The notes under the pieces are model-generated. The model searched no databases and was not told the origin of the DNA. It saw only the letters and a list, made by a program, of their open reading frames with translations. Made by a program: the position numbers and the translations under genes. Positions 4,317 to 18,255 of a DNA stretch of 56,641 nucleotides are shown piece by piece. How positions within the stretch are numbered: the stretch's first letter is position 1; each line of letters starts with the position of its first letter. This DNA is from a plasmid: the sequence record OW849040.1. The stretch is one strand, 5' to 3'.

Positions 4317-4799
4317 ATGAGAACCTTGAAAGTATCATTGATGGCTGCGAAAGCGAAAAACGGCGTGATTGGTTGCGGTCCAGACATACCCTGGTCCGCG
4401 AAAGGGGAGCAGCTACTTTTTAAAGCATTGACCTACAATCAGTGGCTTCTGGTGGGTCGCAAGACGTTTGAATCTATGGGCGCACTCCCCAATAGGAAAT
4501 ACGCGGTCGTTACCCGCTCAGGTTGGACATCAAATGATGACAATGTAGTTGTATTTCAGTCAATCGAAGAGGCCATGGACAGGCTAGCTGAATTCACCGG
4601 TCACGTTATAGTGTCTGGTGGCGGAGAAATTTACCGAGAAACATTACCCATGGCCTCTACGCTCCACTTATCGACGATCGACATCGAGCCAGAGGGGGAT
4701 GTTTTCTTCCCGAGTATTCCAAATACCTTCGAAGTTGTTTTTGAGCAACACTTTACTTCAAACATTAACTATTGCTATCAAATTTGGAAAAAGGGTTAA
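4317..4799 (+). CDS. dfrA14: Trimethoprim-resistant dihydrofolate reductase, dfrA5/dfrA14 group (dfrA14-like) gene cassette
   Basis: 160-aa ORF after attI1 with typical DfrA sequence ([53 protein letters not shown]...). Allele assignment is from memory and could be dfrA5/14/30. The native start may be the internal TTG giving MKVSLMAAK. Confidence 0.8.
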
Positions 4800-5010
4800 C
4801 AAAGCTATGCAATCGACGGCAAAAAGCTTCGTTCGCTTCGCGCACTACGCCTTTTCCGCGATTGATAGCGACGTTATGTGAATATTGAAATGAGCATTCC
4901 AAAGAAAGGAAGTAGAAAAATTATCGTGGGCGAAAATGAGTTTTTGTGGCTCATTAGGTCAAAACTCACATATTCGCAGGACTGTTTAGGTACAGAAATG
5001 ACTGCGGTCG

Positions 5011-9237: not shown

Positions 9238-9521
9238 CGTTGGCCACGCTGGAGCGTCTTCTGGGCCTGCTGTCGGCCTTTGAGGTCGTGGTATGGATGA
9301 CGGATGGCTGGCCGCTGTATGAACCCCGCCTGAAGGGAAAGCTGCACGTTATCAGCAAGCGTTACACTCAGCGCATTGAGCGACATAACCTGAATCTGAG
9401 ACAACATCTGGCAAGGCTGGGACGGAAGTCACTGTCGTTCTCAAAATCGGTGGAGCTGCATGACAAGGTCATCGGGCATTATCTGAACATAAAACACTAT
9501 CAGTAAGTTGGAGTCATTACC
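9238..9521 (+). mobile_element. IS1 remnant (3-prime about 0.28 kb: insB C-terminal part plus right IR)
   Basis: ORF 9240-9506 equals the IS1 InsB C-terminus ([47 protein letters not shown]). IS1 IR ggtaatgactccaacttactgat as its complement ends at 9521. Confidence 0.75.
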
Positions 9522-9727: not shown

Positions 9728-10374
9728 TTAACTCTCATGGTATCGATTTTCTTTACCGGCATCTTTAACAATGGTGCTCGTTTCTAGTGTTGCTGCGGTA
9801 CGCTTCATCATCGTCTGCGGGGCGGTTGCGATAGTGAAGGAGCTGCCGGGCGTGAGCAAATCTATCAGGCGCTGGCCGCTGATAATCTCCATCCGTTCAC
9901 TGGCAATACTGACAGATTTTGAACCTGCGCCGGTTTTCCCGGTATGGCAAAACAGACCGCGACAGTTATGACGTTTAAGCAACTTCTCGAACTCCTGTAC
10001 GTGCTGTAAAGCAATATGGCCGCGATAGCGTTTAGCCTGAATAAGATAGCGATATTTTCCTATTATTACCTGGCCGTCAATGCCTCCATCGCCGGTATAG
10101 CGTTTGTTTCTGATGGTTCTGAAGCCATGCGCTTCAAATCCTTCCAGCAACAGTTCTTCAAACACAAAAGGATCAATTTTCCTCAGGTAGTTAATTTTTT
10201 GTGGGAAGCCCGGCAACGTCTTTATGCGCTCCAGCACCCGCCGCGCACTTTGCTGCTTCCTTTTGTGTCGCCTGTGCCGTACTGAACGCCGGAAGAATAC
10301 AACGGCAAGCAGTGCGATGGCGCTGCAAGCCCATAGAATAAGGTTTTCTGTAGTGGGGAAGGGGATCATGGTCA
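9728..10374 (-). CDS. Membrane-anchored Mrr-cat (restriction-endonuclease-like) domain protein
   Basis: N-terminal TM helix (LILWACSAIALLAVVFF) plus Mrr_cat-type motifs (FEELLLEGFEAHGF...GDGGIDG...YLIQAKRY). Start taken at MTMIPF. The ORF-track start at 10519 is an extension. Confidence 0.55.
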
Positions 10375-10424
10375 TAGTGGGCTTTCTGAGGGTAAAGAAA
10401 AGGGCGGTTAAACCGCCCTGGTGT

Positions 10425-10736
10425 TTAGCGACGGCTGTATACCTGCCACGAAGCGCTGCCTGACTGATTCTGGCAAATCCGCCCGTAAAGTACGGTGCCG
10501 GTCGAGTAGCGGGCGCCATTCAGATAGCAATAGCCGCTGGATTGCAGCAGTTCGTTGCGCAGCTTTTCTTCCTGCTTTGATAGCCGGGACTCCGCAGACT
10601 GCAAACGAACGGATAATTCGTTAATCTGGCGTTGCTGGTTATTCAGCTGGCTCTGCATCGCATTACCTTTATCCTGGCTGACGCAACCAGTTAAGAGAGC
10701 TGTACAGGCTAATGCACTTAATATTATTTTTTTCAC
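10425..10736 (-). CDS. Lipoprotein (signal peptide plus LTGC lipobox, coiled-coil N-terminal part)
   Basis: MKKIILSALACTALLTGC... lipobox. No family assignable by eye. Confidence 0.5.
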   Translation of the reverse strand: MKKIILSALACTALLTGCVSQDKGNAMQSQLNNQQRQINELSVRLQSAESRLSKQEEKLRNELLQSSGYCYLNGARYSTGTVLYGRICQNQSGSASWQVYSRR

Positions 10737-10771
10737 GTTGGCTCCTTAAATTGAGATTATTCCTAGTTCGC

Positions 10772-11086
10772 CTATAAGCGAACTTTCCCGTATTTACTTA
10801 TGATCTGGCTTATCATCGACTGGTTACTTCCACCTTCGCCATTATCCGGGCATTCATTAAGAAAAGCCTTCCTGGCATCCTTCGTGTGGTTGGGTAAAAA
10901 GCCGTGCTTGTTCTTTTTAACGATATTGAAGAAAGCAGCTTCAGCACTGTTACACTCGCTTCCGCCGCTATCGCCGGTGAGCTTGCCCGCCATGCACATA
11001 ATAACTTTGCAGGGATCTTCAGCATGGCTGGCAGGAATATAAAGCAGACTACCAGCTGCTATCAGAGGTATTAAGAGTTTCTTCAT
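10772..11086 (-). CDS. kikA: Secreted 104-aa protein, possibly KikA (IncN kik region ORF104)
   Basis: Signal peptide MKKLLIPLIAAGSLLYIPASHA, 104 aa. Size, signal peptide and IncN location fit the published kikA ORF104 description. This is a guess. Confidence 0.4.
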   Translation of the reverse strand: MKKLLIPLIAAGSLLYIPASHAEDPCKVIMCMAGKLTGDSGGSECNSAEAAFFNIVKKNKHGFLPNHTKDARKAFLNECPDNGEGGSNQSMISQIISKYGKVRL

Positions 11087-11427
11087 TGTTTTGTCCTTAA
11101 CAGTTTGTTCAGATATACACTCGCCAGAATGTTGATAACGGTAAGCAATATTAATAATAACGCTGCGTTATAAATAGATTTGTAACCTATATCGCCTGCA
11201 ATATATTCGACAACAAAAACGAAAATCGTTAAAATTGTGTAAAACTTGATTAACTTTCCTGTAATTTTCTTAACAATATAAGCAACTGAATAAGAGCCGG
11301 ATTTGATGATGCTGGCGAGTAACCTGATCGCATGGACACGAAATTTTCTAAAAATGGGCGGAATGGAAGATGCCTTTTTCTTCCTTCTGCTTTTTTGCCT
11401 TTCCGCAAAATCAATAAGTTCGCCCAT
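11083..11427 (-). CDS. Small integral membrane protein, basic N-terminus
   Basis: 114 aa, two hydrophobic helices, overlapping stop/start with the downstream gene. Confidence 0.4.
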   Translation of the reverse strand: MGELIDFAERQKSRRKKKASSIPPIFRKFRVHAIRLLASIIKSGSYSVAYIVKKITGKLIKFYTILTIFVFVVEYIAGDIGYKSIYNAALLLILLTVINILASVYLNKLLRTKQ

Positions 11428-11442
11428 TTTTATACCCTCCGG

Positions 11443-11748
11443 TTATATCTTCAGATCATCAAGTGATAAACCACTATCAAGCAGCTCTTTGAGCCATGTG
11501 GGTCGGCGGCCAGTCCCGGACCAGGTATTTTCTGCGTTCCTGGGGTCGCGGTATTTTGCTGGTCTATGTTCTCTGGGGTTGGCTACGCCCTGCATCTTCA
11601 TGGCTTCCAGGCTAATGCCAGCGTCCAATTTTGCAGTTAGCCAGGCCGGGCGCTTCCCTATACCAGTCCACGTATTAAAAGGGTTATCCGGGTCACGATA
11701 CACGGGTTCGCCTTTTGGTCGTTTTTCTGATTTCAGGGGAACCAGCAT
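11443..11748 (-). CDS. korB: DNA-binding protein with two tandem H-NS C-terminal-type motifs (TWTGIGKRPAWL / TWSGTGRRPTWL), KorB-like regulator upstream of the T4SS operon
   Basis: Duplicated H-NS-like motif read directly. Start placed at MLVPLKS behind GGAAGGAAGG RBS. The ORF track extends to 11820 via a TTG. korB naming comes from the IncN map position and is a guess. Confidence 0.5.
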   Translation of the reverse strand: MLVPLKSEKRPKGEPVYRDPDNPFNTWTGIGKRPAWLTAKLDAGISLEAMKMQGVANPREHRPAKYRDPRNAENTWSGTGRRPTWLKELLDSGLSLDDLKI

Positions 11749-11815
11749 CACCTTCCTTCCTTCAGCGGTTTTCTTTTCGTTTCTTCTTGACACGATCTCA
11801 TTAGCCCTTATCATA

Positions 11816-11847
11816 AACAAAAGTCGTCGAAATTACAATTACGCGGT
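11816..11847. promoter_or_regulatory. Conserved operator-like element acaaaagtcgtYgaaattRcaattNcg upstream of traL/virB1. Second copy at 18181-18212
   Basis: Two copies, each immediately 5-prime of a T4SS gene start. Core GAAATTGCAATTTC is a perfect palindrome in the second copy. Confidence 0.5.
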
Positions 11848-11856
11848 GAAACATAA

Positions 11857-12591
11857 ATGAGTAAACATCCAAAACTCCTGGTTCTCGCTCTGGCCTGCCT
11901 TGCTTGTGCTGGCCGTGCCAGTGCTGCGCCTGCCTCCGATGAAGTTGCCAGGCTTGCGCAGAGATGTGCGCCTGATGTTTCACCCTTAACGATGGCGTAC
12001 ATCGTCGGCCATGAGTCCTCAAATGGGCCGTACAGGATCAATATTAACGGTAGTATTCAGTTAAAACAGCAACCGCGTACTGAAGCTGAGGCCGTCAGCG
12101 TTGCGAAAGTTCTGCTGAAGGATAATAAAAGTTTTGATATGGGCCTTGCACAAATTAACTCAAATAATTTAGTGGGCCTGGGTCTTTCGGTTGACGATAT
12201 TTTCAAACCCTGCATCAACCTGCGGGCGAGCCAGACCATCCTTAAAGCCTGTTATGATAGCGCCCTGAAATCCTACCCAGCCGGGCAGGTTGCGCTGAGA
12301 CACGCGCTTTCCTGCTACAACACCGGCTCACTCACAAACGGGATTTCTAACGGGTATGTCACGAAAGTTATCAACGTGGCGCGTCAATCAACTGATTTGA
12401 AAATCCCTACGCTGCTACCTGACGGCCAGACCAGTGAGGACAGCACCGCGACTGAGCCTCAGCAGGCAAAAAGTACGGCGCCGCAGTATGACGGTGAACA
12501 AGATGTTTTTGGTTCGGGTGATGGCGATGCCTTCAGCCGAAATAATACGGATGCCTTTTTAACCAGACAGGAAACAGCGAAGGGGGAATGA
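11857..12591 (+). CDS. traL: VirB1-like lytic transglycosylase (pKM101 TraL)
   Basis: Signal peptide plus SLT domain. First gene of the VirB-order operon. Confidence 0.8.
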   Translation: MSKHPKLLVLALACLACAGRASAAPASDEVARLAQRCAPDVSPLTMAYIVGHESSNGPYRININGSIQLKQQPRTEAEAVSVAKVLLKDNKSFDMGLAQINSNNLVGLGLSVDDIFKPCINLRASQTILKACYDSALKSYPAGQVALRHALSCYNTGSLTNGISNGYVTKVINVARQSTDLKIPTLLPDGQTSEDSTATEPQQAKSTAPQYDGEQDVFGSGDGDAFSRNNTDAFLTRQETAKGE

Positions 12592-12881
12592 GGTTATGGA
12601 TGGAACGTTTGTACCTTGTATTGCAATCACAGATCCTGGAGCTATTTGAAGCAGGAAAAGTGAAGGAGGTAACGATAGAACGGGTTTCATTAAAGAAGTG
12701 GTATCCCGTTTTTCAGATAGACGATGAACAGCTGGGCCAGATCGCATGTTCCATTAGGGTTAACAAAGAGCATGAGCTACGAACCTGGGCTGATTTAAGG
12801 CTACTGGCAGAGTTTTTGAAAGATAAGTGTGGCGTTGAAGAATGCCGGTTAAATCTGCAATCAACAGAAGATAGTGAGTAA
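12588..12881 (+). CDS. Hypothetical protein between virB1 and virB2 homologues
   Basis: 97 aa, ATGA overlap with traL stop, AGGGGG RBS. Confidence 0.45.
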   Translation: MRLWMERLYLVLQSQILELFEAGKVKEVTIERVSLKKWYPVFQIDDEQLGQIACSIRVNKEHELRTWADLRLLAEFLKDKCGVEECRLNLQSTEDSE

Positions 12882-18173: not shown

Positions 18174-18180
18174 AATTAAA

Positions 18181-18212
18181 ACAAAAGTCGTTGAAATTGC
18201 AATTTCGGCGAC
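18181..18212. promoter_or_regulatory. Second copy of the acaaaagtcgttGAAATTGCAATTTCggcgac operator-like palindrome, upstream of traN/virB7
   Basis: See 11816-11847. 14-bp perfect palindrome core. Confidence 0.5.
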
Positions 18213-18255
18213 TTATTATAATTAGTACGTTCAACAACCGATAATGGATGCCGTA

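Follow-up and report, generated by a model that had tools for sequence, protein, structure and literature searches.

What does a regulator do upstream of a set of plasmid transfer genes when it carries the DNA-binding motif of H-NS twice and has no oligomerisation domain? The question is raised by positions 10772 to 11748 of a 56,641-nucleotide (nt) stretch of plasmid DNA (sequence record OW849040.1; the whole stretch is referred to as the window), where the genes for a 104-amino acid (aa) signal-peptide protein and for a protein with two H-NS C-terminal motifs lie beside a type IV secretion system (T4SS) operon. As judged by sequence identity, the segment is the kikA-orf114-korB operon of the IncN (R46/pKM101-type) backbone, divergent from traL-korA-traM-traA-traB. 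We are reasonably confident of this identification taken together with a proposed function, namely that KorB is a tandem-domain co-repressor acting with KorA at the tra promoters, in which bivalency takes the place of dimerisation.

Identity of the locus

Positions 10400-12700 of the window are 100% identical to many IncN-typed plasmids (875 plasmid records match), and the DNA differs from that of R46, the parent of pKM101, at about a dozen positions in 1.2 kb. GenBank records annotate the region with 'IncN plasmid KikA protein', 'KorB', 'traL protein' and korA. The original prediction had recognized the 104-aa protein as KikA-like, and had named a lack of similarity to KikA and KorB as the result that would speak against it. 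When the comparison with the R46/pKM101 proteins was made, KikA was found to be 99% identical (103/104 aa with R46) and KorB 100% identical (123/123 aa; WP_011867773). Furthermore, the primers used to clone pKM101 kikA, as printed in PMC12288468, match positions 11053-11086 (minus strand) and 10772-10807 (plus strand) exactly, that is, both ends of the open reading frame (ORF). From the near-identity to R46, the annotations in the records and the primer matches, we conclude that: i) the KikA-like protein is KikA, and ii) the tandem-motif protein is KorB. A tblastn search of the window with both proteins revealed no paralogues. The genes considered here are:

10772-11086, minus strand: kikA, a 104-aa, putatively Sec-exported, four-cysteine protein of the TrbM/KikA/Pep family
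11083-11427, minus strand: orf114, a conserved hypothetical membrane protein, between korB and kikA
11443-11793, minus strand: korB, 116 aa from GTG 11793; alternative starts exist
11857-12591, plus strand: traL, a VirB1-like lytic transglycosylase, first gene of the T4SS operon (Pfam SLT; annotated 'traL protein')
12600-12881, plus strand: korA, a KorA-family repressor and the partner of KorB (NCBIfam NF041289, 122 bits against a cut-off of 100)

On the minus strand, korB (stop at 11443) is followed by the 114-aa and 104-aa ORFs, all three co-oriented; kikA and korB, which had been described as adjacent, are thus separated by orf114. With the gene order kikA-orf-korB <> traL-korA-traM, korB lies directly upstream of the T4SS operon and divergent from it, as had been anticipated, and the plus-strand genes code for a VirB1-like lytic transglycosylase, a KorA-family regulator, the VirB2 pilin, VirB3 and VirB4. 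The identification as such brings nothing new: the genes were named in the 1990s and are routinely annotated, and the sequence is present in hundreds of plasmids. One under-discussed point of these known genes is that KorB appears to consist of two H-NS-type DNA-binding domains with nothing else. No paper discussing IncN KorB as an H-NS-type or tandem protein was found in the open-access literature searched, which, with subscription journals mostly outside the scope, is weak evidence of absence.

Domain architecture of KorB

The duplication of the H-NS C-terminal motif had been noted in a 101-aa reading of KorB (11443-11748), which holds both copies (YRDPDNPFNTWTGIGKRPAWL and YRDPRNAENTWSGTGRRPTWL). 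When the whole protein was compared with Pfam PF00816, the H-NS C-terminal domain, two stretches were matched (E 2.3e-29):

11596-11706, minus strand: KorB H-NS-type C-terminal domain 1 (YRDPDNPFNTWTGIGKRPAWL...), PF00816
11446-11559, minus strand: KorB H-NS-type C-terminal domain 2 (YRDPRNAENTWSGTGRRPTWL...), PF00816

Scanned alone, domain 1 scored 47.8 bits (E 1.2e-12) and domain 2 scored 58.5 bits (E 5.5e-16), where the gathering cut-off is 25.6 bits, and the two halves of KorB share 56% identity over 36 aa (E 1e-15). Hence the profile search backs the duplication, and an artefactual or chance origin was ruled out, each half being above the cut-off alone and the halves being this similar. 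Domain 1 is the one common to the single-domain homologues, and in a phmmer search of the PDB domain 2 matched the C-terminal domains of Ler, StpA and H-NS. The H-NS-type TWxGxGR-P loop is present in KorB.

The absence of the H-NS oligomerisation domain, also part of the original prediction, was borne out: no N-terminal H-NS/coiled-coil oligomerisation domain was detected with Pfam in the whole protein or in its halves. Only 15-39 residues, predicted to be disordered, precede domain 1, which leaves no room for such a domain. PF00816 is the only significant Pfam match, and against the NCBIfam H-NS and StpA equivalogs KorB scores 32-38 bits (cut-offs of 202-211). An AlphaFold2 model of the 116-aa protein (mean predicted local distance difference test score, pLDDT, 75.5) shows disordered residues 1-24 and two compact hairpin-plus-helix domains (pLDDT 82-92; domain 1 ∼84-90) joined by a linker of lower confidence. 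The top four Foldseek matches of this model in the PDB were the C-terminal domains of Ler (in complex with DNA), Bv3F, Salmonella H-NS and E. coli H-NS, the best being the Ler-DNA complex 2lev (root-mean-square deviation of 1.5 Å over 41 columns). From the profiles and the model, KorB comprises a short tail, basic and disordered, and then two C-terminal domains of the H-NS/Ler type, with a linker of ∼12 residues between them and nothing else.

KorB therefore shares with H-NS, StpA and Ler, the nucleoid proteins of Enterobacteriaceae, the C-terminal DNA-binding loop, the profile and the fold. Unlike them, it has two DNA-binding domains in tandem and no N-terminal coiled-coil dimerisation/oligomerisation domain, so that H-NS-type filaments would not be possible in the known way. 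With KorB of IncP-1 plasmids RK2/RP4 it has only the name in common, both being 'kil-override' regulators of plasmid genes. The IncP-1 protein belongs to the ParB family, whose N-terminal and helix-turn-helix domains were not found in the Pfam comparison of IncN KorB; the folds are unrelated and the shared name is coincidental. The known counterpart is KorB of IncN R46/pKM101 (More, Pohlman & Winans 1996), with 100% identity, the same position and the same annotation, and the only difference lies in the start codon chosen across records (101, 116 or 123 aa).

The korB start codon

Four candidate starts were considered: ATG 11748 (101 aa), GTG 11793 (116 aa), ATG 11814 (123 aa, as in RefSeq for R46) and TTG 11820 (125 aa). 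ATG 11748 is preceded by a strong Shine-Dalgarno sequence, GGAAGGAAGG. The GenBank 'KorB' coding sequence spans 11443-11793, and the 'KorB' protein P0001 is likewise 116 aa long. In three related plasmids, korB begins with (A/G)TG-TCA-AG (annotated in L003 and L004, in-frame in L005), a sequence reverse-complementary to the virB1 -35 box CTTGACA(T/C), and the same layout is observed in the window at GTG 11793. Furthermore, the single-domain homologues lack a methionine where MLVPL lies, and must start upstream. This conserved start/-35 layout and the missing methionine lead us to favour GTG 11793 over ATG 11748. The 101-aa ORF initially proposed thus exists, and is probably N-terminally short; internal initiation at ATG 11748 may occur.

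The tra promoters and their operators

The predicted traL and korB promoters are arranged face to face and share a -10 region (TATCAT / TATGAT; 11787-11838). The elements recognized here, and at a second tra promoter, are:

11787-11814, plus strand: predicted traL (virB1/kilA) promoter, TTGACA-16-TATCAT, 11/12 consensus match
11810-11838, minus strand: predicted korB promoter, TTGTAA-17-TATGAT, 9/12 consensus match
11815-11843: operator O1, AAACAAAAGTCGTCGAAATTACAATTACG; its core (11829-11842), GAAATTACAATTAC, is an imperfect dyad
18179-18214: operator O2, at the second tra promoter (traN/traE), with a 29-nt copy at 18179-18207, a palindrome at 18193-18206 and a dyad at 18185-18214

An element at 11816-11847 had been singled out before as a target for DNA-binding assays; it is real, and its limits are better set at 11815-11843 (O1). 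O1 lies directly after the traL -10 box, and overlaps both the korB -35 box and positions ∼+1 to +22 of traL. The best local match of this promoter region within the window is a copy with 26 of 29 nt identical, upstream of traN/traE (O2). The core of O2 is a perfect palindrome, GAAATTGCAATTTC, within a 30-bp dyad, AAGTCGTTGAAATTGCAATTTCGGCGACTT, and O2 overlaps a predicted promoter with -35 TTGAAA and -10 TATTAT (18191-18219). The outer arms of the dyad, AAGTCG and CGACTT, were seen only in IncN-type operators and not in the R388, Pseudomonas and Caballeronia versions. The G+C content of the promoter regions is 30-35%, as compared with 51% for the window, and such AT-rich DNA would suit minor-groove binding by H-NS-type domains.

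The layout of CTTGACA followed by a -10 box is found also in L003, L004, L005 and R388. The core palindrome lies between the virB1 promoter and the start codon in L003, a second IncN-type plasmid, and in Pseudomonas, Caballeronia and Xanthomonas plasmids. In the IncW plasmid R388 (NC_028464) it is present at PkikA and PkorA; at PtrwH no palindrome was found at one mismatch or fewer, and a degenerate box, TCAAAATTGCAATCC, was read there by eye. In R388, KorA alone represses PkikA, PkorA and PtrwH, the palindrome-bearing promoters, and KorB is not among the six repressors found (PMC3937220). Because of this activity of R388 KorA, the core palindrome is best assigned, by analogy, to KorA; KorB would then be an accessory co-repressor. 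The assignment agrees with the joint restraint of pKM101 kil/T4SS (mating-pore) gene expression by KorA and KorB, which PMC5062321, citing More 1996, describes as negative regulators whose loss leads to excessive expression.

It could be argued that it is KorB that reads the core palindrome, one H-NS-type domain on each AAATT half-site, and that KorA binds elsewhere or acts via KorB, so that the tandem protein would be the equivalent of a dimeric repressor. The match between two KorB domains and two operator half-sites speaks for it. A motif with high affinity for H-NS, tCG(t/a)T(a/t)AATT, was reportedly defined by Lang et al. in 2007, and the half-sites TCGAAATT and TCGTTGAAATT resemble it. 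However, the same palindrome is present in plasmids with a one-domain KorB, the palindrome at the traL/korB promoter is more degenerate in the plasmids with a two-domain KorB (O1 in the window, and L004), and the R388 promoters that bear it respond to KorA alone and not to KorB alone (PMC3937220). We consider this arrangement unlikely, and prefer KorA on the palindrome with KorB as its co-repressor. An extension on the 5' side of the operator, AAA(C/T)AAAAGTCGT, is found in the window and in L004, both with a two-domain KorB, and is absent from L003, L005 and R388. With only two related positives, and with the Burkholderia plasmid L010 devoid of any palindrome, we treat this correlation as a lead.

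A model for KorB action, and the points that weigh against it

In the model that we favour, KorB and the KorA repressor would shut down the tra promoters together. KorA would sit on the core palindrome (GAAATTnCAATTTC), and KorB would use the G-K/R-R-P loops of its two domains to contact the minor groove, either in the AT-rich operator or in its flank. Two domains in one polypeptide would make the binding bivalent, replacing the dimerisation that R388 KorB presumably achieves through its helical N-terminus. Since O1 extends across the korB -35 box and the beginning of the traL transcript, a protein bound at this site would repress both divergent promoters, and korB would thus be autoregulated.

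Several points weigh against this model. The promoter positions are consensus predictions only, and with several candidate korB starts the length of the basic tail varies with the start chosen. The division of base contacts between KorA and KorB is inferred from sequence and from analogy with R388, where KorB alone had no repressor activity (PMC3937220); by the same analogy KorB may need KorA, or may do something besides repression. The arginine that is critical for minor-groove contact in H-NS and Ler is a lysine in KorB domain 1 (GKRP). Finally, the two-domain homologue of Burkholderia (L010) has no recognizable palindrome.

Some of these observations would also fit a role as an anti-silencer or competitor of host H-NS, in which KorB, like Ler, would displace H-NS filaments at AT-rich promoters, or would spare the H-NS pool in the manner of a stealth protein. 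Ler, an H-NS antagonist, is the closest match of KorB in both solved structure and sequence, KorB has no oligomerisation domain, and the tra promoter regions are AT-rich. Ler, however, has an N-terminal oligomerisation domain, which KorB does not. The failure of R388 KorB alone to repress any promoter (PMC3937220) is likewise compatible with anti-silencing, but the loss of KorA/KorB-mediated negative regulation is said in PMC5062321, citing More 1996, to result in excess kil/T4SS expression, and the name korB itself reflects a kil-override phenotype in the literature. We therefore regard anti-silencing as very unlikely, and retain co-repression with KorA as the working model.

Relatives of KorB and the recurrence of tandem domains

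The module of a VirB1 gene divergent from genes for an H-NS-domain protein, a membrane ORF and KikA is kept in divergent IncN-type and Pseudomonas plasmids. Burkholderia (L010) also has a KorB homologue facing away from a VirB1-like gene, and in Caballeronia and Xanthomonas this pairing occurs together with the palindrome. Two-domain homologues are those of IncN1, L004 and Burkholderia L010, and one-domain homologues those of L003, L005 and Caballeronia. R388 KorB (95 aa) has one C-terminal domain after a charged, helical N-terminus of ∼50 aa. It resembles IncN KorB in being a small H-NS-C-terminal-domain protein whose gene and the T4SS genes kikA/trwN/korA diverge from either side of a promoter with the same AAATTGCAATTT palindrome; R388 kikA, unlike that of IncN plasmids, is on the other strand and codes for a 193-aa product. 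Because these relatives have one domain, to which R388 KorB adds a helical N-terminus, the second domain of IncN KorB may substitute for dimerisation.

An exhaustive HMMER search returned 1858 relatives at E ≤ 1e-3. Among the 167 that were retrieved, two core motifs were observed in 89, three in seven and eleven in one 801-aa protein, so that ∼97 of 167 carry at least two, in a set that the query's own two domains enrich for tandem matches. In six unrelated proteins of 160-210 aa, the tandem arrangement was confirmed with Pfam. Thus, from the sequences retrieved, tandem H-NS C-terminal domains are clearly recurrent and not rare, and the architecture of KorB, at first called unusual for a transfer-operon regulator, is so only relative to textbook H-NS.

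When the 36-aa domains were clustered by identity, a crude measure, the first domains of the enterobacterial proteins grouped together, as did their second domains, which points to one old duplication in the enterobacterial clade. In the same crude clustering of short sequences, the second Burkholderia domain and both domains of the protein P0024 look nearer to single-domain sequences or to their own protein, which hints at independent duplications in these two cases. As a tentative extension, which we put forward as a conjecture, duplication of the H-NS domain in IncN/IncW-type KorB would have taken place on more than one occasion: in the IncN clade of enterobacteria, in a clade from Burkholderia and perhaps in P0024. 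Such duplication would stand in for coiled-coil dimerisation and would yield a co-repressor that is monomeric, bivalent and operator-specific, the second domain of which would read the IncN-specific outer half-sites (AAAAGTCG...CGACTT) around the KorA palindrome. Under the same conjecture, tandem H-NS C-terminal domains, in 2 to ∼11 copies and in some cases joined to effector or enzymatic domains, would form a widespread and essentially unstudied class of H-NS-fold proteins that act independently of oligomerisation.

Some individual sequences in these searches are of note in their own right. A 499-aa metagenomic protein (P0046) is, by Pfam, a fusion of PNP_UDP_1, TRADD-N and two H-NS C-terminal domains, and resembles an effector of the conflict-system kind, which its tandem H-NS domains would anchor to DNA. 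Nine Pfam H-NS C-terminal stretches and eleven core motifs were counted in the 801-aa P0021, and eight matched stretches in the 942-aa P0036. A 588-bp contig (L009, NZ_JAHZPU010000082.1) of a Streptococcus infantis assembly carries an IncN korB that is 97% identical, almost certainly a contamination of that assembly. In L003, the 34-kb IncN-typed plasmid with a single-domain KorB, a gene of the Hha/YmoA family is located at 4621-4857, a few genes downstream of kikA. Proteins of this family are partners of H-NS N-terminal domains.

KikA, orf114 and neighbouring genes

The only change between KikA of the window and that of R46, I17L, falls in the signal peptide. By inspection, the signal sequence is a typical Sec signal, with MKK, a hydrophobic core and ASHA|ED at the cleavage site (MKKLLIPLIAAGSLLYIPASHA|ED). 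Cysteines are present at residues 26, 31, 45 and 79, and the same pattern is found in the homologues of L003 and L005. A signal peptide and four cysteines are the hallmark of the TrbM/KikA/Pep family (PMC13311141). KikA matched the Pfam TrbM profile (PF07424) with 27.5 bits, where the cut-off is 21, over profile positions 10-70 of 156 only, and fell far under the cut-off of the NCBIfam TrbM equivalog, as expected for a protein that is not an equivalog. No sequence relative was found in the PDB, and no PHROG family was matched. Inside the gene lies a second ORF:

10813-11025, minus strand: embedded, out-of-frame 70-codon ORF ('ORF70'), with an ATG start in the +1 frame, inside kikA

The kikA locus is reported to have two ORFs, one embedded in the other, and the 70-codon ORF, which is present in the window and in R46 and is not conserved in the divergent kikA homologues of L003 and L005, fits that description. 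Hence the likeness to KikA of pKM101/R46 and pCU1 (Hengen 1992; Holcik & Iyer 1996) extends from the near-identity and the primer matches to the embedded ORF, and the difference amounts to one conservative substitution. With TrbM (RP4/R751), Pep (pKM101) and KikA (R388) the protein shares the signal peptide, the four cysteines, the linkage to a T4SS and a TrbM Pfam score above the cut-off; IncN KikA is much shorter (104 aa, as against 193-199 aa).

Members of the TrbM/KikA/Pep family are described in the literature as exported proteins with four disulfide-forming cysteines, which boost conjugation and, on the surface of the cell, associate with VirB5. For pKM101 KikA, a requirement for pilus production and efficient transfer has been reported, as well as a toxicity that affects Klebsiella oxytoca and spares K. 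pneumoniae KPPR1S. Besides being toxic to K. oxytoca, KikA is now counted among the accessory/adhesin-family proteins of the T4SS. We propose that the KikA of the window would likewise be a Sec-exported, disulfide-stabilised member of the family, aiding pilus and mating functions of the T4SS, and toxic when expressed in K. oxytoca. The historic kik phenotype, the selective inhibition of K. oxytoca growth, might be taken to mean that kikA is primarily a dedicated toxin against Klebsiella recipients and not a T4SS component. We hold this to be most improbable, given that KikA falls within a family of exported T4SS accessory/adhesin proteins, and that kikA is syntenic with the T4SS in distant plasmids from non-enteric hosts.

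The product of orf114 has a basic N-terminus and, as judged by hydropathy, two hydrophobic helices at ∼residues 59-77 and 84-106. No family match was found in Pfam, NCBIfam or PHROG. A hypothetical ORF occupies the same slot between korB and kikA in all the related plasmids examined (L003, L004, L005 and R46). Close to its 3' end, orf114 differs from its R46 counterpart by a 1-nt indel, because of which R46 is annotated with a longer, kikA-overlapping version of 125 aa.

Three further ORFs lie beyond kikA:

10425-10736, minus strand: 103-aa lipoprotein, just downstream of kikA, with an LTGC lipobox and a coiled-coil region; weak Lpp/OprI-like matches; hypothetical in the annotation of all records
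9728-10519, minus strand: 263-aa protein with an Mrr_cat restriction-endonuclease domain; annotated shorter elsewhere (489 nt in CP026198)
9240-9506, plus strand: 88-aa ORF beside the Mrr_cat ORF; by eye, a C-terminal fragment of an IS1-type transposase

The Mrr_cat ORF and the IS1-like fragment suggest that an insertion has left a scar at the backbone edge.

Significance

IncN plasmids are major carriers of carbapenemase and extended-spectrum β-lactamase genes, and KorA and KorB keep their transfer genes off. The KorB proteins with two domains, with one domain, and with a coiled coil plus one domain constitute a natural series for testing operator-specific repression by the H-NS fold without filaments, and the conserved operator defined here is a DNA substrate on which such repression can be tested.

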